NCBI RefSeq assembly: GCF_041583075.1
Contig: NZ_JBFHGN010000007.1
Length of the DNA stretch: 24,000 nt
Origin: Pontiella sp.
Lineage (GTDB): Bacteria > Verrucomicrobiota > Kiritimatiellia > Kiritimatiellales > Pontiellaceae
Strand: one strand, 5' to 3'
Positions 1,651 through 13,090 of this stretch are shown here, in pieces. The notes under the pieces are model-generated. The model did no database searches. It was not told the DNA's origin and saw only the letters and a list, made by a program, of their open reading frames with translations. How positions within the stretch are numbered: the stretch's first letter is position 1; every line of letters begins with the position of its first letter. The translations under genes and the position numbers were made by a program.

Positions 1651-1685
1651 AAAAAAAAAAGCCCCGCATTGCGGGGCTTTTTTTA
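1651..1685. terminator. bidirectional rho-independent terminator between convergent trpB and the DUF4139 gene
   Basis: A10 tract (1651-1660), stem GCCCCGC (1661-1667), loop ATT, stem GCGGGGC (1671-1677), then T8 (1678-1685). It reads as hairpin plus U-tract on both strands. Confidence 0.85.
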
Positions 1686-1766: not shown

Positions 1767-2882
1767 TTATGGGCGGATGTTGCGGCGGTGGTAGTGCATC
1801 TCGAAATCCTTTTTCCCGTTGGCGGGCAGCTCGATTTCGAACTTGAGGGTGGAGGCGTCTTCCAGCTCATACTCCATGTTGCACGCTTCCATGTCCCACT
1901 GTCCGTCGATGTGCTGGATCAGCGTCAGTCGGGCGGGCGTGTCCTTGAAGTTTTCGATCTTCGCCGTAATCAGCTCGTCGGTGTCGTAAAGCACGACATC
2001 GTTCCGGCTGTTCTTCCGGAGGTTGATCTGGCGGTCGGTCATCTTTTTCTGCGTCACGACGATGTCGCGGCTGTCGCCGATGTAGACCTCCATCTCTTCG
2101 CCAACGGGCACCAGTCCCGGGCGGTCCTCGCCCAATACGATGGTGCCGCCGCTGCCGTCGTCCTGATAGACGCGCGCCTTGCCGCCGTTGAGCGCAAATC
2201 GGCCCAGCCCGCTTTCCTGCGTGTTGGCGATCTTGTAGGAGACCGGAATCCCGACGTTGCCCTTCTCGCGCTCCGGATCCCACGGCAGTTTCGCGGCATC
2301 GAAGGTCCAGATCTTTTCAACCGGCACCTCGCCCGCCTTGAGGAAAAGCATCTGCTTGGTCTCCTCGTGCTGGATGCCGCGCTCGAAGGCCTCGCCATAG
2401 TCGAGCAGCACCCGCGCATTCTCGAAATCCTCGCCCGAAAAGTTGCGCAGCACCAGGTAGCTCTTGAGGTCCACCTTCGACTCCGCCTTGTCGGCCACCA
2501 TTTTATAGGTCACCAGCCGATCGATGTAGGAGAGCAGGTACGAGATCCGCACCGGCTGTTCCTTCGCCGACGTGCTGGCGATTTCCCAGACCAGCGCCTG
2601 CTCGTTCGGCGGATAGCTGACATTGAGCAGCACCGTTTCGTCGGCATTGCCGAGGACGGTCAGGCGGATGGAATCGGAATCGATGTTCACGCCCTTCCAC
2701 GAGAAGTCGACCTGGTTGATTCCCTGCTGCAGGGTCAGCACGCGCTCTTCCTCGATCAGCGTCGCATCCGGGTTGTCGAGCCGGATATCGGTCTGTCCGC
2801 GCTCCGGCAGCGCCACCATCTTGATCCGCGCATGGGTTGTTGCAGAAACAATCAGTAGTAGTGTGGTGATAATATATTTCAT
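1767..2882 (-). CDS. secreted DUF4140/DUF4139 (MuiA-like) family protein, divergent paralog
   Basis: Start placed at ATG 2882-2880, after GGAG in GCAAACGGAGA. The signal peptide is MKYIITTLLLIVSATTHA. It keeps family strings RNFSGEDFENARVLL, ARVYQDDG..IVLGEDRPGLVPVGEEMEVYIGDSRDIVV and KIENFKDTPARLTLIQHI. The 22 codons upstream in the track ORF are a translation of the heptamer repeat, not protein. Confidence 0.8.
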   Translation of the reverse strand: MKYIITTLLLIVSATTHARIKMVALPERGQTDIRLDNPDATLIEEERVLTLQQGINQVDFSWKGVNIDSDSIRLTVLGNADETVLLNVSYPPNEQALVWEIASTSAKEQPVRISYLLSYIDRLVTYKMVADKAESKVDLKSYLVLRNFSGEDFENARVLLDYGEAFERGIQHEETKQMLFLKAGEVPVEKIWTFDAAKLPWDPEREKGNVGIPVSYKIANTQESGLGRFALNGGKARVYQDDGSGGTIVLGEDRPGLVPVGEEMEVYIGDSRDIVVTQKKMTDRQINLRKNSRNDVVLYDTDELITAKIENFKDTPARLTLIQHIDGQWDMEACNMEYELEDASTLKFEIELPANGKKDFEMHYHRRNIRP

Positions 2883-2905
2883 GGTTAAATCTCCGTTTGC
2901 TTGAA

Positions 2906-2940
2906 GAGTGATTCGTGAGCCGTGAGCCGTGATTCGTGAT
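2906..2940 (-). repeat. five tandem heptamers (sense-strand unit N-TCACG-N) in the leader of the gene at 1767-2882
   Basis: The plus strand reads gagtgat tcgtgag ccgtgag ccgtgat tcgtgat. The array sits 23 nt upstream of the ATG, directly 5' of the conserved GCAAACGGAGA RBS block. The whole leader (2883-2965) aligns with the leader at 4298-4366. Confidence 0.8.
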
Positions 2941-2965
2941 GGTTTCACGTATCAATCGTCACTCA

Positions 2966-4297
2966 TCACTGTTGGTTATCCCCGTGGTTGGTCGTCAGCT
3001 GATAGGTGAATGTTTTCTTCGACTCGGGCGGCAGTTCGAGGGTGAACTTCACCGTGTCCGCGTCGTCCTTTTCGAATGTTCCGAAGTCGCCCGCCTTTTC
3101 GATTTTCCAATAGGTGGACCCAAGGTTGCGTTTGATTTCGACCTTCACCGGAACCGGCCGCGTGTTGCGCACTTCCACTTCGAAGTCGTGGATTTCGTCC
3201 CAGCCGGAAACATTGCCCTTGCGGTCGAAGCGATGGTTGGCCGTGGCCTGTTTCATCCGTTTCGGCTCCACGATCACGTTTTCCACCCGGCCGAGGTCGA
3301 GCTCCACCTTTTCGTCGATCGGGATATACTTGAAACTCGACTGCCCTTCGAAGGCAAGGTGCGCCGCCTCGCCCGTAAGCCGGAAGACCCGCATCGACCC
3401 GCCGGGGATCGGCGTTTCGCCCAGCGCATGCTCCTCGTCGTTCTTGAAGCTCAGGAACCGGCGCACGTGGCTGCCGTAGCGTTCCTCTTCGAACTTGTAG
3501 AGATTTGCCACCGGGATTGCGTCGGTATCGAAACTCGGCAACCGCTTCGACCAGCCCGTCGGGATCGTTTCCGTCCCTTCGATCGTGTAGAGGAAATATT
3601 CGCTCAGCCCCTCTTTCTTGATCTCTTTTGGGGCGGCCATTCCGAAATAATCCACCGAATCCTCCATCGCCATCACCACGCCCTTGGCCACTTTCATTCT
3701 TGAAGTGGTTGGCCGGTCATAGGCCACCCGTTCGGGGCGGGGCGTGCCATAGGGATGCTCTTGCCGGGCGAGTTCCGCGATTTGGTCGAGCATGTGCACC
3801 TTGCCGACGATCAGGCGGGTTTGGGCGTTTTCATAATCCTCGCCGCTGTTGTTCGTCACCCGCACATAGCCCTGCAGGCGCAACTTGGTCTCGTCGGGCG
3901 TCAGCGTGCCCATATAAAACGCGCGCCACGAAAGTCCGCTGGTCAGATAGCTGATCTCCACGGGCGACTTCCCGCTGACCCGGCTATCCACATTCCACAG
4001 GCCCAGGTTTTGGACGCGCGGCGGATAAACCAGATCCAGGATATCGATCTTGTCCGCGTTCGCCTTCGGCTGCATTTCCAGACTCGTCGGATCGATCAAG
4101 GTGTTCGCCCACGAAAACTGGAGCTTGTTGATGCCCTCCTTGAGGGTCAGCGCGCGCTGCTCGCGCACCAGCGTCATATCGGCCGAGTTGTAGATCGTCA
4201 ACTGCACCGTATCGCGTGTCGGGATCGTTGCCAGATCCATCTTGGCCTGGACGCCCGTCGCGGCGGCCAGCACCAATAGTTGAATGATTCTTCTCAT
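2966..4297 (-). CDS. secreted DUF4140/DUF4139 (MuiA-like) family protein
   Basis: Start placed at ATG 4297-4295, after GGAG. The signal peptide is MRRIIQLLVLAAATGVQA. It is a close paralog of the C-terminal domain of the anti-sigma protein. Shared strings include VQLTIYN, NTLIDPTSL, LVYPPR, NNSGEDYENAQTRLIVG, LSEYFLYTIEG, NLYKFEEER and KGNVSGWDEI. Confidence 0.85.
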   Translation of the reverse strand: MRRIIQLLVLAAATGVQAKMDLATIPTRDTVQLTIYNSADMTLVREQRALTLKEGINKLQFSWANTLIDPTSLEMQPKANADKIDILDLVYPPRVQNLGLWNVDSRVSGKSPVEISYLTSGLSWRAFYMGTLTPDETKLRLQGYVRVTNNSGEDYENAQTRLIVGKVHMLDQIAELARQEHPYGTPRPERVAYDRPTTSRMKVAKGVVMAMEDSVDYFGMAAPKEIKKEGLSEYFLYTIEGTETIPTGWSKRLPSFDTDAIPVANLYKFEEERYGSHVRRFLSFKNDEEHALGETPIPGGSMRVFRLTGEAAHLAFEGQSSFKYIPIDEKVELDLGRVENVIVEPKRMKQATANHRFDRKGNVSGWDEIHDFEVEVRNTRPVPVKVEIKRNLGSTYWKIEKAGDFGTFEKDDADTVKFTLELPPESKKTFTYQLTTNHGDNQQ

Positions 4298-4312
4298 GTT
4301 TTCTCTCCGTTT

Positions 4313-4347
4313 GCGGGAGTCGTGATGCGTGAAACGTGAGCCGTGAT
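4313..4347 (-). repeat. five tandem heptamers (sense-strand unit N-TCACG-N) in the leader of the gene at 2966-4297
   Basis: The plus strand reads gcgggag tcgtgat gcgtgaa acgtgag ccgtgat. The array sits 15 nt upstream of the ATG and abuts the same GCAAACGGAGA block. Confidence 0.8.
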
Positions 4348-4366
4348 TTTCTACACGTCTCAATCG

Positions 4367-6112
4367 TCACTCTTCACGCCTTGTCCCATGTTGCACCGTC
4401 AGTTCGTATTCGATGGTTCTTTTGCTCCGCGGTTCGATCGTTTCCATGAAGCGGAAATGCTCCGCATCGTATGTTGTAACCGCCGCATCCGTTTCGACCT
4501 TCCAGTCGGCCGACTCGGCCCAGCGCATGATTTCCACATCGACCGGGCGGTCTTCCGCGTTGGTGATCTCGATCTTCCAGTCGGTGATTTCGTCCCAGCC
4601 GGAAATGTTGCCTTTTTGGTCAAACTCAAAATTTTCGGTGCGGGTGCGCATCCGCTTGGGGGCCACCATCACTTTCCGGGCAACGCCCAGCTCCAGCTCC
4701 ACCTTTTCGCCAACGGGGATGTATTGGATGCTCGATGCGCCAACGTAGACGAGGCTTTCCGTTTCGCCGGCGTGGCCGAACACCCGGACTTGCCCCTCGG
4801 GCAACGGGGCTTTGCCGAGCTTGCAGGTTTCGGTGTTGGCGATCGAAAGGTAGCGTATGGTTTGGTCGCCCCAGCGTTCGGCCTCGAATTTATAAAGGTT
4901 GGTGACGCCGATCTCCTGCGCCTCGATATTCGGCAGCCGCTTGCCCCAGCCATCTCGAATCGTCTCCCGCCCCTCGATGGTGTAGAGCTGGTATTCGCTG
5001 AGCGCTTTCTTGAAGATTTCTTTTATGTCTTCTGCATCGTAATTAAAAAACCGGGCTTCAATTTCGACTTCTTGGCGGTTGAACTGCCATTTGTCATTCG
5101 CCGAAACCGTGTTGCTGCGGGACAAAACCTCGATCCCCGGGGTGCCATAGGGAGGGGTCCGTTTGGCCAGCGTCGCGATTTTTTCATCAATGTTGATCTC
5201 TCCCACCACCAACCGCGTTTCGGCGTTCTCGTAATCTTCGCCACTGCCGTTGTCGATGCGGACGTAGGATTTGAGCTTCATGGATTGTTGGTCGGGCGCG
5301 AGGGTGGCTTCGTAGAAGGCGTTCCATTTGAGGCCGGAGGTAAAATAGGTCAGCTCGAATTCGGCCTCGCCGCTGAATTCGGAAAAGATCGTCCAGCGCG
5401 CCAGCTCGTTCAGCCGCGGCGGATAAACCAACTGGGTGATTTCGATCTGGTCCGCATGGGTGACGGGACGCAGGTCGAGCGACGTCGGGTCGATGAGCGT
5501 ATTGCTCCACATAAACTGGAGCCAGTTCCAGCCGCGCTTGAGCGTCATCTTCCGCGTTTCGCGGACGAGGGTGAGGTCCTCGGCGTTGTAGATCGTCAGC
5601 TGCACCTCGTCGCGCCGCGGCAGGACGTTGAGCTCGATGTTGCTCGCCGGCGCGAACGGCTGGGATGCCCGCAGCGCGGCGAGGGTAGGGACGGCGGTCC
5701 CAGCCGTCCGCGCGCCGGAATCGGTCGAGGTGGAGTTTGCCTCTCCCAACCTGCCGGACGCCGGGGCAGGCGGGCCGCCTGCGGTGCGATCCTCTACGGG
5801 CAGGCCGGGCCGGATCAGCAGAAACGCAAAAGCGATGCTCGCGGCGGCGGCAAGAATGATCGCCGGGCGCCAAACAAGGAGCTTCGATCGTCCGGGTTGC
5901 CGACATTCCGCCAGAACGGCCTCGATTCGTTCCTCCGAAACCTCGGGCTGTTCGTTCAATACGTCCAGCGCGGCAAACTGCGCCTCGATGGCCTGAAGCG
6001 CATCCCGGCATTCGGCGCAGCGTTGCAGATGCGCGTCGATCTTGCCGCGTTCCGTTTCCGGCAACAGATTGAATTGGTATTCCCTGAGTTGGTCGGTGCT
6101 GAAATGGGTCAT
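4367..6112 (-). CDS. anti-sigma factor: zf-HC2 domain, one TM helix, low-complexity linker, DUF4140/DUF4139 extracytoplasmic domain
   Basis: Start ATG 6112-6110 overlaps the sigma stop as ATGA and is preceded by AGGAGG with a 6-nt spacer. The N-terminus MTHFSTDQLREYQFNLLPE...HLQRCAECRD carries the H-x3-C-x2-C anti-sigma motif. The TM helix is WRPAIILAAAASIAFAFLLI, followed by a P/A/G/S/T-rich linker. The C-terminal ~400 aa are paralogous to the two downstream proteins. Confidence 0.85.
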   Translation of the reverse strand: MTHFSTDQLREYQFNLLPETERGKIDAHLQRCAECRDALQAIEAQFAALDVLNEQPEVSEERIEAVLAECRQPGRSKLLVWRPAIILAAAASIAFAFLLIRPGLPVEDRTAGGPPAPASGRLGEANSTSTDSGARTAGTAVPTLAALRASQPFAPASNIELNVLPRRDEVQLTIYNAEDLTLVRETRKMTLKRGWNWLQFMWSNTLIDPTSLDLRPVTHADQIEITQLVYPPRLNELARWTIFSEFSGEAEFELTYFTSGLKWNAFYEATLAPDQQSMKLKSYVRIDNGSGEDYENAETRLVVGEINIDEKIATLAKRTPPYGTPGIEVLSRSNTVSANDKWQFNRQEVEIEARFFNYDAEDIKEIFKKALSEYQLYTIEGRETIRDGWGKRLPNIEAQEIGVTNLYKFEAERWGDQTIRYLSIANTETCKLGKAPLPEGQVRVFGHAGETESLVYVGASSIQYIPVGEKVELELGVARKVMVAPKRMRTRTENFEFDQKGNISGWDEITDWKIEITNAEDRPVDVEIMRWAESADWKVETDAAVTTYDAEHFRFMETIEPRSKRTIEYELTVQHGTRREE

Positions 6113-6654
6113 CGCAAACCTCCTTGCGGCAACTTCACGGCCAGGGTTTTGAGGGCGCGCGACATGTGGGTTTTCACGGTGCCCAGCGAACATCCCATGA
6201 TTTCGGCGACTTCCGGGTAGGTGTGCCCCTGGTAGTAGGCGAGCACCAGCGCGGCGCGTTGCTTGGGCGGCAAGGTTTCGACGGCGGCTTTGACGCGGTG
6301 GCGGAGTTCGGACTGGGCGGTTTGCTCGTCGGGCGTGCCGGCGGGGTCGGTTTGCTCGATTTCGAACGGCTGGGTCTCCGGGCTGCGGTTGTTTTTCCGG
6401 ATGCTGTCGATCGCAATCCGCGTGGCGATGGTGAAGAGCCAGCTCTTGAATCTGGCGCCGGTTCGATAGGTGTGCGCCTTTTGGTGCACCCGCAGGAAGG
6501 TTTCCTGGAACAGGTCTTCGGCCGTTTCGCTGTTATGCACCATTCGCATCAGATATCCGTATAGCCCGCTTTTGTATCGGCGCAACAGGGCCGGGAAGGC
6601 CGTTTGATCGCCATCCCGGTACGCTTCCATCAGAAGTTCGTCGCTCTGCTCCAT
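6109..6654 (-). CDS. ECF-type RNA polymerase sigma-70 family factor
   Basis: 181 aa. Region 2 is DLFQETFLRVHQK...FKSWLFTIATRIAIDSIRK. Region 4 is LPPKQRAALVLAYYQGHTYPEVAEIMGCSLGTVKTHMSRALKTL. It is translationally coupled to the anti-sigma gene. Confidence 0.92.
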   Translation of the reverse strand: MEQSDELLMEAYRDGDQTAFPALLRRYKSGLYGYLMRMVHNSETAEDLFQETFLRVHQKAHTYRTGARFKSWLFTIATRIAIDSIRKNNRSPETQPFEIEQTDPAGTPDEQTAQSELRHRVKAAVETLPPKQRAALVLAYYQGHTYPEVAEIMGCSLGTVKTHMSRALKTLAVKLPQGGLR

Positions 6655-6680: not shown

Positions 6681-6709
6681 ATACGCCTGTCGTCGCGGTT
6701 CGGTTTACA
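6681..6709 (-). promoter_or_regulatory. candidate ECF-type (autoregulated) promoter upstream of the sigma gene
   Basis: The minus strand reads TGTAAAC (6709-6703), 17 nt, then CGTAT (6685-6681), ending 26 nt upstream of the ATG. It resembles the AAC / CGT architecture of ECF promoters such as B. subtilis sigW and sigX. This is a pattern match only. Confidence 0.35.
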
Positions 6710-8598: not shown

Positions 8599-10586
8599 TC
8601 GGATTCCTCCAGCGCCGGCAGAACGATGGAGACGGTGGTGCCGCCGGAGCTGGTCTCGATATCCATCTGGCCGTTGTGGTCGACCACCGCGCGTTTGGCG
8701 ATGGGGAGTCCAAGCCCGAACCCGAGGGCCTTGGTGGTGATGAACGGCGAGAAAACCTTGTCGCGTACGGAGTCGTCGATCCCGCTTCCGTTGTCGGTGA
8801 CCATGATGAAGACGTTCCCGGAACCCTGTTCGGGCATGCGGCCCTTGGCGGTGACGTTGATGCGCGAGCCGGGCTTGTTGGCCAGGTTTTCGGCGGCGTT
8901 CTTGAGCAGGTGGTAGACGCATTCCTCGAGCGAGCCGGCGTCGCCGTTGATCTGCAACGCGGAGTCGTCGGCCGATAGATGGATCTTGAGGTTGTCGTGG
9001 TCGAGTTCGGACTGGATGCGGGTGACGGCGTGTTCGATGGGTTTGCGGATGTCGAGCGGTTGCAGATTGGGTTTGGGCGGGTTGGCGAATTCGTTGATCT
9101 TGTCGATGATCTGGTTGAGGCGGTCGACTTCGCTGGTGACCTGGTCGCCGAATTCGGTGCGGAAGTCCGCATCCTCGTAGCGCTTGGGCAGGAGCTGGGC
9201 AAAGGTTTTGATGGCGACGAGCGGGTTGCGGATTTCGTGGCTCATGCTGGATGCCAGTTCGTTCCAGAAGGTGGCGCGCTCGACCTGCTCCTCCTTTTCC
9301 TTGAGCAGCTTGACCCCGGTCACGTCGCGCAGCATCGTCATGGCGCCGACGCAGGTTCCGCCGTCGGAGAGGCAGCGGGTTTCTGCGGCGAGGGTGAGCT
9401 TGGTGCGGCTGTCGGTCCATTCGAGGAGATCGCGGGCGGCCATCTGTTTGACGGAGCGGCGCAACGTGTCGGCGATGCGGCTGCCGAGAACCTCGGCCTT
9501 TTGTCCGATGATCTCTTCCTCGGTCGGCTGGAGGATTTCCCGGGCCGTGCTGTTGAACCAGCGAATGATCGCGTTTTCGTCGCACGCCACGATGCCGAAC
9601 GGGATGGAGTGCAGCACCGTTTCGGCGAGGGCCTTCTGCAGGGCGGTCGCTTCGTACTGCAGCGCTTTTTCCAACGTGGTGGAAATATGGTCGGCGAGTC
9701 CGGTGAGGTCCTCGAGGTCGGTGAGGTCGAACGGAATTCCGGTGGAGCGCTGGCCAACGAAGATCCAGCCTTTGATGCAACCGGAGGCATAGAGCGGGAT
9801 GATGATCTCGGCCCCGAGCGAGTCGAGCATATGCTTGAGCATGGCCCGTTCCTGGGGATCGAAAACGTTTTCGAGCGTCTTGCGCGAAATCAAGTGGGTA
9901 TTCATTTCCAGCCAGCGGACAAAGGGGTTGTCGGGGCGGATGACCAGTTTTTCCGTGGCGGCGAGGCAGCGGGTGCCCGCCTGGTAGGCGTAGTTGTCGG
10001 TTGCTTCGGATTTGATGAAAATGCCCGCGCGCGAAACCCGGGCCGTGGCGACGAGGCCCTCGACGACGCTTTCGAAAAGCATGTCCACGTTGTCGAAATT
10101 GCGCTGCGCCTTGGAAAAGTTCTGCAGCGGAGCGGAAAACAGCGCGCGCGGCTGGGGGCGTTGTTCGGCTCTGCGGGCATTCAGGGTGGCGAGCTCTTCC
10201 TGCAGGATCTTGTTCTTTTGGCGGAGCGACAGGCATTCGATCGCCTGCTTGAGCAGGGCCTGGAATGCGCGGCGGTCGGGTTCCAGCGAGGTCGTCGCGA
10301 ACGGTTCGAGCCATTCGGCGGCAAGCATCGGGTCGGAACGGTCGGCGCCGAGCACAATGACGATGGTCGAGGGCTTTTCCTTGCGGATCGACGCGAGGAC
10401 GTCGAGGCAGTTGGCGGCCCGCAAGTCGGCGATAAGCAGCGTGTCGCCGAACTGGGCGATCCACTGCTCCAACTCGGTCTGTTCGTCGATCGGTTGCAGC
10501 GCCACGATGGAAGAGGCGATGCGGACGATGCGCCCGGAGAGGTTCTCGTCGCGGGTGTATAGGATGCATGACGGAAGGGTCTTCAT
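8595..10586 (-). CDS. cytoplasmic sensor histidine kinase: receiver-like domain, GAF, PAS, HisKA, HATPase_c
   Basis: 663 aa with no TM segment. The N-terminal ~120 aa have a receiver-like pattern (LLIADLRA) but lack the usual T/S and K. The H-box is SMSHEIRNPLVAIKTFAQLLPKRY, the N-box HLLKNAAEN, G1 DNGSGI and G2 GFGLGL. The start ATG overlaps the upstream kinase stop as ATGA. Confidence 0.88.
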   Translation of the reverse strand: MKTLPSCILYTRDENLSGRIVRIASSIVALQPIDEQTELEQWIAQFGDTLLIADLRAANCLDVLASIRKEKPSTIVIVLGADRSDPMLAAEWLEPFATTSLEPDRRAFQALLKQAIECLSLRQKNKILQEELATLNARRAEQRPQPRALFSAPLQNFSKAQRNFDNVDMLFESVVEGLVATARVSRAGIFIKSEATDNYAYQAGTRCLAATEKLVIRPDNPFVRWLEMNTHLISRKTLENVFDPQERAMLKHMLDSLGAEIIIPLYASGCIKGWIFVGQRSTGIPFDLTDLEDLTGLADHISTTLEKALQYEATALQKALAETVLHSIPFGIVACDENAIIRWFNSTAREILQPTEEEIIGQKAEVLGSRIADTLRRSVKQMAARDLLEWTDSRTKLTLAAETRCLSDGGTCVGAMTMLRDVTGVKLLKEKEEQVERATFWNELASSMSHEIRNPLVAIKTFAQLLPKRYEDADFRTEFGDQVTSEVDRLNQIIDKINEFANPPKPNLQPLDIRKPIEHAVTRIQSELDHDNLKIHLSADDSALQINGDAGSLEECVYHLLKNAAENLANKPGSRINVTAKGRMPEQGSGNVFIMVTDNGSGIDDSVRDKVFSPFITTKALGFGLGLPIAKRAVVDHNGQMDIETSSGGTTVSIVLPALEESE

Positions 10587-13090
10587 TTGGCGATGCCCTC
10601 TTCTAGAACCGGGATGTAGACATAGAACGTGGTGCCGCGACCGGGTTCGCTTTCCACCTCGATCACGCCATGGTGCTCGCTGATAATGCCGTGTGCAACG
10701 GATAGCCCCATACCGGTTCCTTCGCTTTTGCTGGTGAAGAACGGATCGAAGATCTTTTGGAGCTTATCGCGTTCGATGCCCTTGCCCGTATCGGTGATTT
10801 GCAGGCGGATGCACTTCTTCGTCGTCGCCCGTTCCCGGGTGTCGGGACTGGCGAAGCGGTAGTTGCAGTTGATGGTGCCGATGGTGATGTTGCCGCCCTC
10901 GCCGATCGCTTCGATGGCATTCAGCTTGAGGTTGATCAGGGCTTGCGACAGCAACTTGGCGTCACCGAAGATTTCGTCGTTGGAAGCGTTGTATTTTGTC
11001 GTGAGGTCGATGTGGTTCAAGGCGCGCTGTTCGTGGGTGAGTTTGAGCGTCTGGGCAATGGTGTCCTGCAGTTTCATGGGAATGAGGTGCGGTTTGGCCG
11101 GTTTCGAGAAGCTGAGCAATTCGTTGACGATGCCGTCGATGCGCGAAACCTCATGGGCGACCAAACTCGAAAAATCGTGCCGGAAGTCCTCGTCGTTGTA
11201 GCGCTTCGGCAGTAGCTGGGAGAAGGTTTTGATCGTGACGAGCGGGTTCTTGATTTCGTGGGCCATGCCCGCCGCCAAGGTGCCGACGCTCGAAAGCTGG
11301 TCCGTTCTGCGAACCTGTTCTTCAAGGCCTTTCAATTCGGTGATGTCGGTGAAGACCAGCAGCGCGCCCATCGGCTTGCCGTCGTGCCCTAGCAAAAAGG
11401 CCGAGCCCATGCGGATGTTCGCGCTCTCTTCCTCCGTGTCTGGGTTATACAGCGTTGCGTCCATGTTGCGAACGCCCGTCTTGGTTTCGAGCGTGGTTTC
11501 GAGCGCCATTTGGATGGCTCGCGGCAGGATCCCGATCGGTTTTCCGATCGCCGCATCGTCGGGGATGCCGGTGATGCGCTGCGCCTCGTGGTTGAACAGG
11601 GTAATGGTCCGGTCGGGGCTGGCCACGATCACTCCGCTCACCAGCTGGTCGAGCATGATTTCGTTGCGGATCTTGCTGTCCTGCATCTCCGTATAAAGCT
11701 GCGCATTCTCCAGTGCCACCGCAAACTGGTTGCACAGGATTTGGAGTCCATCTTGCTCGGACTTGTCATAAATCCTTCCATTCGCTCTGGAGCTGAGCAG
11801 GACTACGGACTGGATATCCGATTTTCGAAAGACTCCGATAGCGATGCTTGCATCCAGCTCTGCAAATTGCTGCCTTACTTGCTGTAAGGCTTCAGTCGGC
11901 CTTAGGCGGGCAATGATTTCCGCACAGACCGGTTCGTGCGTTTTGTGAATCATGGAAACCAGTTCGCTGTTTACTGAAACTTGTTTTTCAATGGAATCGT
12001 CTGTTGAAAACGCTGTTTCGAAAAAAAAGCCGTTAAGTGTTAAAATACAAACGTGTCTTGGTGAAAATTCATCAAGCAAAAACTCGGAAAACTGGGAAAG
12101 CAGGGCTTTGTATGTGGTTACCGCTTGAAAGATCTCCCCTGATGATTTTATGACAGCTGATATGTCGGTTGATTGGAGTACAATAAGTTTATCGGCGGCT
12201 CGCTGTAGTTTTTTTCGCGCTGGTGCCATTGAAAAAACTACAACAAGAGTGCAGACGATTTGAAGGGATACAGAGCTTTGAAAGCCCAGACCCTTAAAGA
12301 CTAGCGTCAAGCTATTCCAACTTATGAGATAAACGATCGTCATGTAGCACGCCAGTAAAGCGTATGCCATGATTTTTCGGAGGATGATGGCTACGGCTAG
12401 GATCTTGTGAACAGAGATTCCGTAAGCAACGATTGAAGTCAGCGTAAGAACGCTTGAGGCATGTGCAATTGGTACCGGGACAAAGCTGTCAAGAAGGGCC
12501 GCAAGAACTGTTCCGCATAGTCCTACAACAAGGCCTGCGATACAGGCAAAGCCAAGAAATTCAAGTTCAAGCCTTTGGTTTCCGTGCAATATTTTACGAT
12601 CACGATTGAGCGCATGGGCTAAAACGGCGAGTGCGCTTAGAAAGTAAAGGTTATATAGAGGATAGAATGGTCCGAATTTTGGGGTGGCAATGCTCATGCC
12701 GGTTTCGGCAACTTCTTTGTTTGCGGAGATTAAGAAGAGGTGATTAAAGCATAACGCTAGCATGATTAAGTTGAAAAGAATGTGAATCTTGCACTTTTTA
12801 ATGATTTCGATCCACGGCGCAGCTGGGTATCTTATTGAAAGACGAAGAAAATGAAATGTAGTGGGAATGAAGGCCGCAATGGCAAACGCTGCTTGTATTC
12901 CATTTTTTGTTAGAGCATCCGTCCTTGAGTTGGCAATGAAGACATTCGAGGCAAGCCATAAGGCCATGCAGATGGATGCTGTAAGGAATGCTTGATTTGT
13001 TTTCCGATAGTTGTTGTTTGCATATACGGCTATGCCTACTCCCAAAGAGATCAAGGAAGCTATTGATGGGAAAATGGTGATGATGTCCAT
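10583..13090 (-). CDS. membrane sensor histidine kinase: ~9 TM helices, GAF, PAS, HisKA, HATPase_c
   Basis: 835 aa. The first ~290 aa contain about nine hydrophobic helices and no sizeable periplasmic loop. A GAF-like region and a PAS domain follow. The H-box is GMAHEIKNPLVTIKTFSQLLPKRY, G1 TDTGKGI and G2 GTGMGL. The start ATG overlaps the ketosynthase stop as TAATG. Confidence 0.9.
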   Translation of the reverse strand: MDIITIFPSIASLISLGVGIAVYANNNYRKTNQAFLTASICMALWLASNVFIANSRTDALTKNGIQAAFAIAAFIPTTFHFLRLSIRYPAAPWIEIIKKCKIHILFNLIMLALCFNHLFLISANKEVAETGMSIATPKFGPFYPLYNLYFLSALAVLAHALNRDRKILHGNQRLELEFLGFACIAGLVVGLCGTVLAALLDSFVPVPIAHASSVLTLTSIVAYGISVHKILAVAIILRKIMAYALLACYMTIVYLISWNSLTLVFKGLGFQSSVSLQIVCTLVVVFSMAPARKKLQRAADKLIVLQSTDISAVIKSSGEIFQAVTTYKALLSQFSEFLLDEFSPRHVCILTLNGFFFETAFSTDDSIEKQVSVNSELVSMIHKTHEPVCAEIIARLRPTEALQQVRQQFAELDASIAIGVFRKSDIQSVVLLSSRANGRIYDKSEQDGLQILCNQFAVALENAQLYTEMQDSKIRNEIMLDQLVSGVIVASPDRTITLFNHEAQRITGIPDDAAIGKPIGILPRAIQMALETTLETKTGVRNMDATLYNPDTEEESANIRMGSAFLLGHDGKPMGALLVFTDITELKGLEEQVRRTDQLSSVGTLAAGMAHEIKNPLVTIKTFSQLLPKRYNDEDFRHDFSSLVAHEVSRIDGIVNELLSFSKPAKPHLIPMKLQDTIAQTLKLTHEQRALNHIDLTTKYNASNDEIFGDAKLLSQALINLKLNAIEAIGEGGNITIGTINCNYRFASPDTRERATTKKCIRLQITDTGKGIERDKLQKIFDPFFTSKSEGTGMGLSVAHGIISEHHGVIEVESEPGRGTTFYVYIPVLEEGIAK

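Follow-up and report, generated by a model that had tools for sequence, protein, structure and literature searches.

A conserved four-gene operon encoding an ECF sigma factor, an anti-sigma factor with a DUF4139-type sensor domain, and secreted paralogues of that sensor

A stretch of 24,000 nucleotides from Pontiella sp. (RefSeq assembly GCF_041583075.1, contig NZ_JBFHGN010000007.1; hereafter 'the window') carries an operon in which a sigma factor of the extracytoplasmic function (ECF) type and an anti-sigma factor are encoded together with two secreted proteins, both of which are paralogues of the periplasmic sensor domain of the anti-sigma factor itself. Sequence comparison identifies this four-gene operon as real and strongly conserved, and its design is not described as far as the literature was checked. 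The switch as such consists of an ordinary ECF sigma factor and a zinc-associated anti-sigma (ZAS) factor; what is unusual is the type of the sensor, a DUF4139 (PF13598) domain, and the presence of sensor paralogues as the apparent regulon.

The operon and its products

The operon comprises four co-directional open reading frames (ORFs) on the minus strand, at 6109-6654 (sigma factor), 4367-6112 (anti-sigma factor), 2966-4297 (a 443-residue product, here named P2) and 1767-2882 (a 371-residue product, P3), and these coordinates agree exactly with those of the first-pass annotation of the window. The stop codon of the sigma gene and the start codon of the 581-residue anti-sigma factor share the tetranucleotide ATGA (context ...ttg cgATGAccc), likewise as first proposed, with a GGAGG Shine-Dalgarno sequence located within the 3' end of the sigma gene; as read from this overlap, the two proteins are co-translated. 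The gaps that follow are short (69 bp between the anti-sigma and P2 genes, 83 bp between the P2 and P3 genes), and a search for terminators between the four genes returned no credible candidate. A predicted intrinsic terminator, GCCCCGC-AAT-GCGGGGC followed by T10, closes the operon at 1651..1684 on the minus strand; flanked by an A-run as well as a T-run, it has a bidirectional look.

The 181-residue sigma factor consists of only the sigma-2 and sigma-4 domains, devoid of any extension, and can thus be classified as an ECF (group 4) sigma factor. It matches the Pfam models Sigma70_r2 (71.9 bits) and Sigma70_r4_2 (72.1 bits) and scores 123.8 bits with TIGR02937, for which the cut-off is 42.9; AlgU, SigE and SigW are its closest relatives of solved structure. 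The anti-sigma factor begins with a helical domain (residues 1-70, 5903..6112) bearing the sequence HLQRCAEC, as the alignment, the profile matches and the AlphaFold2 (AF2) model all indicate. Its four predicted zinc ligands, H3, H28, C32 and C35, are invariant in all 17 homologues aligned, and their spacing is that of ChrR, namely H-x3-C-x2-C with a fourth ligand ∼25 residues upstream, which is the motif of class I (ZAS) anti-sigma factors. The zf-HC2 score of the window protein (21.4 bits) lies slightly below the cut-off of 22.2 bits; zf-HC2 is matched in 12 of the 17 homologues, with a best E-value of 2.7e-5. In addition, the protein reaches 35.8 bits with the model NF052375 ('antisigma'), residues 2-76 match RsiW and ChrR weakly in profile comparison (aligned to residues 4-78 of ChrR), and the N-terminal helices are modelled with a predicted local distance difference test score (pLDDT) above 90.

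A single predicted transmembrane helix (residues 77-99, 5816..5884; hydrophobic stretch LLVWRPAIILAAAASIAFAFLLI, with an AF2 helix at 85-98) connects this domain to a P/A/G/S/T-rich, putatively disordered periplasmic tether (residues 100-151, 5660..5815), for which pLDDT is low and the alignment variable: residues 98-138 have pLDDT values below 50, length and sequence of the linker differ among homologues, and the tether spans 50-150 residues. The order of HLQRCAEC motif, one membrane helix, linker and ectodomain is therefore as it had first been read from the sequence, and the AF2 model agrees with it. At the boundary between tether and sensor domain stands the motif PFAPAS (residues 152-157, 5642..5659), of which every residue (P152, F153, A154, P155, A156, S157) is invariant in the 17 homologues. 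Among 77 anti-sigma sequences the motif is confined to this protein type; at the same alignment columns P2 and P3 carry the -3/-1 residues of a signal-peptidase site. The latter read A/S-x-A/G in P2 and P3, and P155 and S157 take their place in the anti-sigma factor. In the AF2 model residues 155-159, with pLDDT below 50, are uncertain. PFAPAS might have been left over from the fusion, might be cleaved in a regulated manner, or might mark an x↓Ser position of autoproteolysis.

The remainder of the anti-sigma factor (residues 158-581 and the stop codon, 4367..5641) is the putative periplasmic sensor, identified by Pfam, BLASTP and AF2 as an all-beta DUF4139 domain of ∼420 residues; a variable insert, disordered in the AF2 model (residues 307-375, 4988..5194), interrupts it. 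With a gathering cut-off of 31.8 bits, DUF4139 is matched by the anti-sigma factor (42.2 bits) and by P2 (56.7 bits), and by all 17 anti-sigma homologues; P3, which lacks the variable insert, scores below the cut-off (17.8 bits) and is related to the others through BLASTP. The ectodomain of the anti-sigma factor aligns with P2 from end to end (48% identity over 428 residues, E = 5e-141) and with P3 in two segments (E = 2e-19 and 1e-11), while P2 and P3 align with each other in two segments as well (E = 3e-29 and 3e-16). Both the close and the distant similarity had been noticed on first reading, as had the signal peptides of P2 and P3, each spanning residues 1-18 and ending VQA↓K and THA↓R, respectively.

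The family assignment made at that stage, a 'MuiA-type' domain composed of DUF4140 and DUF4139, has to be revised in part. DUF4139 stands for the anti-sigma factor and P2, with P3 under the cut-off; DUF4140 (PF13600) falls away, being matched by none of the four window proteins at E<=1, by none of the 17 homologues of the anti-sigma factor with the threshold relaxed to E<=10, and in none of the precomputed Pfam assignments of 240 listed homologues. The MuiA-family model TIGR02231 (cut-off 112.6 bits) yields only 40.2, 33.3 and 12.8 bits for the three DUF4139 proteins, aligned over model positions ∼180 to 520 only. With scores so far below the cut-off, membership of the MuiA family is rejected; the proteins belong to the DUF4139 superfamily instead.

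Conservation, promoter and evolution

For a survey of the locus one genome per species was scanned. A relative is encoded in 216 genomes; 80 loci were retrieved, and their operon content was determined by searching six-frame ORFs with the four window proteins. The hosts belong to the Kiritimatiellota, the Planctomycetota (mostly Phycisphaerae, Sedimentisphaerales) and the Lentisphaerota. Most of the 120 matches listed are fused, full-length homologues of the anti-sigma factor, which are 44-75% identical to it at a coverage of 98-100%. The ECF sigma gene lies directly upstream of the anti-sigma gene in 72 of the 73 loci for which enough upstream sequence is at hand, frequently with a 4-bp overlap. 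In the 39 loci whose downstream sequence extends for 5.5 kb or more, P2-type genes are never missing (one copy in 20 loci, two in 15, three in 3 and four in 1), and exactly one P3-type gene is present in 37. The gene order is anti-sigma factor, P2, P3 in Kiritimatiellota and anti-sigma factor, P3, P2(n) in Planctomycetota; no further gene was found to be conserved throughout the 80 loci. Recurrence of the linkage between sigma factor and DUF4139 proteins in other genomes had been set beforehand as a test of the proposal made for the window, and the linkage does recur, with the sigma gene adjacent and paralogues downstream wherever the sequence suffices.

Upstream of the sigma gene, a predicted ECF-type promoter is located at 6681..6709 on the minus strand, with a -35 element TGTAAACC (6709-6702), a spacer of 17 nt and a -10 element CGTAT (6685-6681), 26 nt before the ATG. 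This dyad is the sole match in the window. Of 73 loci, 66 have its counterpart TGT[C/A]AAC-N17-NGT[C/A]T upstream of the sigma gene, with the spacer being 17 nt long in 63 of the 66; the remaining seven loci depart from it by single bases. The consensus may also be written TGTMAACC-N17-CGTMT. Elsewhere in the 1.70 Mb of locus sequence there are just 8 other matches, and none of the 76 matches in these 1.70 Mb precedes a P2 or P3 gene as an additional ECF promoter, the rest of the window being likewise clear. Hence, as judged from the motif and its distribution, the operon most probably activates its own expression and is transcribed as a single unit. In the 2021 ECF classification, TGTCAACC is given as the -35 element of ECF37 and ECF41 (TGTCAACC...CGTT), groups which have other regulators, and CGTCT as the -10 element of ECF35s1, the motif of which is TAACCCG...CGTCT.

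A neighbour-joining tree of 215 domains (no bootstrap) yields three groups: a long-branched P3 clade, a P2 clade, and, beside the latter, a sensor clade containing all 77 anti-sigma ectodomains together with six secreted sensor-like proteins. Such a pattern fits the joining, once and long ago, of a P2-like gene with an anti-sigma module. The view of P2 and P3 as two copies of one domain gives way to that of two ancient orthogroups; a recent duplication as their origin is rejected, with each protein far closer to its orthologues in other phyla than to the other. The six secreted sensor-like proteins, which consist of a signal peptide and a free anti-sigma ectodomain, are encoded by L012 9214-10602, L046 7909-9291, L051 9320-10720, L068 7923-9323, L032 9246-10670 and L039 9113-10504 (locus and coordinates within it). 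Five of them nest inside the sensor clade and that of L039 stands at its base; W195 is kept in four of the six and W197 in three. They are possible natural decoys.

Over conserved columns, the window proteins and their orthologues from Planctomycetota share 71% identity for P2, 71% for P3, 58% for the sensor domain and 50% for the sigma factor, so that within the module constraint is strongest on P2 and P3, as would be expected if they are its working parts. Sensor, P2 and P3 have forty positions in common at which conservation reaches 95% or more; many are polar (R167, N176, D208, N288, S290 and E292, among others), and some belong to an N-x-S-G-E motif at residues 288-292. A further 19 positions are invariant in the sensor only (among them PF-PAS, R166, W195, W197, M201 and R239), and 15 of these fall within residues 152-252. 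The tethered copy thus keeps the conserved core of the family and has an additional surface peculiar to it.

Known systems, possible mechanisms and significance

In its basic layout the switch resembles RpoE-RseA-RseB of E. coli, SigW-RsiW of B. subtilis and SigE-ChrR of Rhodobacter, all of which pair a two-domain ECF sigma factor with a co-transcribed anti-sigma factor of class I, often a zinc binder, that has an N-terminal helical domain. ChrR shares the H-x3-C-x2-C motif and the upstream histidine at the same spacing, RseA and RsiW share the single membrane helix, and all three systems share the AAC/CGT-type promoter and autoregulation, the latter predicted here from the motif. Unlike in these systems, the anti-sigma factor of the operon carries a DUF4139 sensor of ∼420 residues on a long disordered tether, and, unlike in RpoE-RseA-RseB, the downstream genes encode paralogues of the sensor and not regulators of the RseB/RseC type. 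No ECF group with DUF4139 as sensor is listed in the main text and preprint supplement of the 2021 ECF re-classification, in line with the remark in the first-pass annotation that no described group of this kind was known to its author.

A precedent from Pseudomonas had been seen in MuiA and its link to AlgU; a closer one is provided by the ECF sigma factor SbrI (ECF35), which is reported to transcribe muiA in P. aeruginosa, with induction by D-cycloserine, osmotic shock and overproduction of CtpA (PMC10418997). SbrI-SbrR-MuiA is likewise an envelope-stress-induced ECF sigma/anti-sigma pair, the output of which is a periplasmic protein of the DUF4139 family (PMC10418997). In the 2021 classification, the SbrI/ECF35s1 -10 element CGTCT resembles that of the operon, whereas the -35 elements differ (TAACCCG there, TGTMAACC here). 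Unlike MuiA, the operon proteins fail the MuiA-family model. Furthermore, muiA is not known to be linked to sbrIR in P. aeruginosa, nor is SbrR known to carry a DUF4139 domain.

SigI-RsgI of C. thermocellum also has a single-pass anti-sigma factor with an extracytoplasmic sensing module, which binds polysaccharides in that case (PMC10328401, PMC6852018), and RsgI of B. subtilis uses an extracytoplasmic disordered region in sensing (PMC9732909). Sigma-I, however, is not an ECF sigma factor, the anti-sigma domain of RsgI is of another kind and is accompanied by a SEAL domain that cleaves itself, and only the operon described here has the sensor's paralogues encoded alongside. Feedback and mimicry of the general kind considered below have parallels: in CpxP-CpxA of E. 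coli a periplasmic member of the regulon feeds back on its own sensor. In two systems from Bacillus and Staphylococcus, BlaR1 and PbpP-RsiP-SigP, an effector paralogue with the same ligand as the effector serves as the sensor, as is reported for PbpP (PMC8092216). These three systems involve other protein families and other signalling chemistry, and serve as analogies only.

The AF2 models of the anti-sigma factor (mean pLDDT 72.9) and of P2 (76.8) both represent a chain of beta-sandwich domains. A sequence-profile search of the PDB found no relative of the DUF4139 part. When the two models were compared with the PDB by Foldseek, the only matches at E <=1e-3 were to Ost1/ribophorin I (E = 8e-7 to 1.5e-4, probability 0.75-1.0, ∼500 aligned columns spanning both beta-sandwich halves), and most of the remaining matches were to the N-terminal domains of M1 aminopeptidases and of leukotriene A4 hydrolase; no literature was found that links Ost1 with the latter enzyme. 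Ost1/ribophorin I is a non-catalytic luminal subunit of the eukaryotic oligosaccharyltransferase, and its likeness to the predicted structures of the operon proteins is weak. We take the resemblance as a lead on the fold, not as a family assignment; as such, it would point to a non-enzymatic scaffold for the binding of extended chains.

Tentatively, we read the operon as a self-contained and autoregulated envelope-signalling unit with negative feedback through competition between paralogues, a reading that may well hold but on which we would not insist. The N-terminal domain of the anti-sigma factor would sequester the sigma factor, and the free P2 and P3 proteins would be the output of the switch, that is, periplasmic binders of a conserved component of the envelope, possibly an extended polypeptide or glycan chain. 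The tethered P2-like domain would bind the same ligand or partner as the free copies and would become engaged when ligand exceeds their capacity. Engagement would then cause the anti-sigma factor to be removed by regulated proteolysis, as happens to RseA, RsiW and RsiV, proteolytic activation being an assumption carried over from RseA/RsiW-type systems. The released sigma factor would transcribe its own operon, and the additional free copies thus made would soak up ligand and switch the signal off. Four considerations weigh against this reading: (i) sigma factor, anti-sigma factor and paralogues are apparently encoded on one transcript and thus in a fixed transcriptional ratio, so that feedback would need differences in translation or stability; (ii) the 19 sensor-only positions indicate that the tethered domain does something that the free P2 copies do not, and would suit binding of a partner or recognition by a protease at least as well as simple competition for a ligand; (iii) the loci were gathered with peptide patterns specific for the anti-sigma factor, so that the sample covers P2 and P3 where they stand beside the switch; and (iv) the Ost1 matches have TM-scores of just 0.12-0.21, with an rmsd of ∼25 Å and 7-10% sequence identity.

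The main rival is a different arrangement, reminiscent of RseB or CpxP, which is possible yet in our view unlikely: P2 and P3 would form a hetero-complex, P3 would also hold the P2-like domain of the anti-sigma factor and protect it from proteolysis, and whenever P3 or the complex is drawn to a target in the envelope the domain would be cleaved and the sigma factor freed, until newly made P3 caps it again. That P2-type and P3-type genes always co-occur, with P3 being single in 37 of 39 loci and P2 present in one to four copies, that the sensor falls on the P2 side of the tree and never on the P3 side, and that P3 is 71% identical across phyla, as a hub might be, all speak for it. The invariant surface residues peculiar to the sensor (W195, W197, M201, R166, R239) cluster in the N-terminal sub-domain and could form a docking face; rseB, for comparison, is co-transcribed with rpoE-rseA, and its product protects RseA. 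Yet residues that dock P3 should be common to P2 and the sensor, and the sensor-specific ones are not found in P2; moreover, co-expressed free P2 would compete for P3 and thereby destabilise the off state, unless binding depends on ligand. A more far-reaching proposal, to which we give still a little less credence, is that P2 and P3 form a periplasmic hetero-complex related to an Ost1/ribophorin-type scaffold for extended polypeptides or glycans, that the anti-sigma factor is a tethered mimic of one of its subunits, and that the ECF switch reads the assembly or occupancy of the complex. If true, such a checkpoint based on subunit mimicry would constitute an undescribed mode of ECF control. It would also open, for the first time, a way to the function of DUF4139 proteins as a whole, with MuiA and the family members from eukaryotes among them.

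The other explanations fare worse. By analogy with sigma-I/RsgI, the ectodomain might bind an extracellular or periplasmic polysaccharide used as food and the free paralogues be induced substrate-binding proteins: the hosts include Pontiella and Sedimentisphaerales genomes, lineages of polysaccharide degraders, the fold is of the beta-sandwich type, and RsgI anti-sigma factors do bear polysaccharide-binding sensor modules (PMC10328401, PMC6852018). Nutrient sensing is nevertheless improbable, as the 80 loci do not have a glycoside hydrolase, a sulfatase or a transporter as a conserved member or neighbour of the operon, no Pfam carbohydrate-binding module family is matched, and 71% identity of P2 and P3 across phyla would be unusually rigid for proteins tracking variable food polymers. 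One might also place the signal in the cytoplasm, with the zinc domain acting as a redox or thiol sensor in the manner of RsrA and ChrR and the ectodomain merely anchoring the protein in an assembly of its periplasmic paralogues. Invariance and ChrR-like spacing of the four zinc ligands would agree with this, and some ZAS proteins sense oxidants directly; in membrane-bound ZAS anti-sigma factors such as RsiW, however, zinc is structural and signalling proteolytic, and an ectodomain of 420 residues with 58% identity across phyla and 19 sensor-specific positions is hard to square with a mere anchor, which makes a cytoplasmic signal very improbable. Finally, P2 and P3 might be neighbours and nothing else, transcribed from housekeeping promoters of their own while the sigma factor controls genes elsewhere. 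The insertion of 1.5-4.7 kb between the anti-sigma and P3 genes in some loci and the unexplained heptamer repeats in the intergenic regions (see below) would be accommodated in this way, but the genes share one strand in all 80 loci from three phyla, are separated by only 69 and 83 bp in the window, have no promoter- or terminator-like sites between them, and adjoin a sensor that is their own paralogue; we regard simple adjacency as the least probable explanation of all.

DUF4139, described in Pfam as spanning bacteria to eukaryotes, is a large family without known activity, and in the literature searched just four papers, all unrelated, refer to it. A new sensor domain on an anti-sigma factor is not surprising by itself. 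What the operon offers is a circuit testable by genetics, comprising one promoter, a sigma factor, an anti-sigma factor with a member of the family as sensor, and free members as apparent output. Its occurrence in more than 200 species of three phyla of the Planctomycetes-Verrucomicrobia-Chlamydiae (PVC) group, with secreted proteins that are 71% identical, points to a basic, as yet unnamed function in the envelope, and the operon taken together with the SbrI-MuiA link suggests an old and general coupling of DUF4139 proteins with ECF envelope signalling. We thus consider the operon to be the best available genetic entry to DUF4139, and to merit description as an ECF group.

Public annotation misses this design, naming the anti-sigma factor a 'DUF4139 domain-containing protein' and P3 a 'hypothetical protein'. 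The public records contain no exact entry for the 581-residue anti-sigma factor; the closest among the matches listed (P0001, 490 residues, Pontiella sp., Kiritimatiellota) is 99% identical with a query coverage of 84%, and is ∼90 residues shorter than the 581-residue reading. Should these residues be the N-terminal ones, that record would lack the anti-sigma domain, and automated annotation hides the anti-sigma nature of the family. In the PADLOC anti-phage models, the three DUF4139 proteins found no match and the sigma factor one weak match at chance level.

Intergenic repeats, neighbouring genes and other observations

The two intergenic regions downstream of the anti-sigma gene are homologous to each other, and each contains 4-5 tandem TCACGNN heptamers just upstream of the ribosome-binding site, at 4314..4346 (anti-sigma/P2) and at 2907..2939 (P2/P3) on the minus strand. 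Eight of the nine matches in the window fall into these two regions, as against 2.0 expected by chance. Other heptamers occupy the same place in front of P2-type genes elsewhere, namely GACAGAN in Planctomycetota and ATTAGTG in L002 (sites at L012 7800-7850, L009 10201-10256 and L002 7770-7807). The repeats could be unstructured leaders that enhance translation, or an array for the binding of a protein. In many loci of Planctomycetota the 5' leader of the sigma gene reads TAGTTGGAGTAAATAGCCTCAATG (e.g., L017 5380-5410); its GGAG is complementary to CCTC just before the ATG, and a small hairpin could thus mask the ribosome-binding site.

In 27 loci of Planctomycetota, the sigma gene is immediately preceded, at ∼3-5 kb upstream of the anti-sigma gene, by two genes of its own strand, one resembling short-chain dehydrogenases/reductases (SDR) by its sequence motifs and one of ∼544 residues. 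Common to these 27 loci only, the pair was rejected as part of the operon, and probably reflects synteny within a lineage, outside the module. Extra secreted proteins between the anti-sigma factor and P3 were likewise rejected as core members. Their genes, encoding proteins of ∼500 residues, occur in only 11 loci, all from Planctomycetota (L072 7841-9490, L027 2098-3579 and nine more); one type contains CarboxypepD_reg repeats, whereas for the other a weak match of the thioredoxin-like kind is all that was seen.

Two separate whole modules, L027 and L033 (DATKZT010000018.1 and DATKZT010000108.1), were found in one metagenome-assembled genome of Sedimentisphaerales; their presence in a single bin implies that the switch can occur more than once in a genome. 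Outside the operon, positions 12001-13000 of the window have a G+C content of 0.44, compared with ∼0.59 elsewhere, and fall within the 5' portion, coding for a region of seven transmembrane helices, of a histidine-kinase gene on the minus strand (10583-13090).

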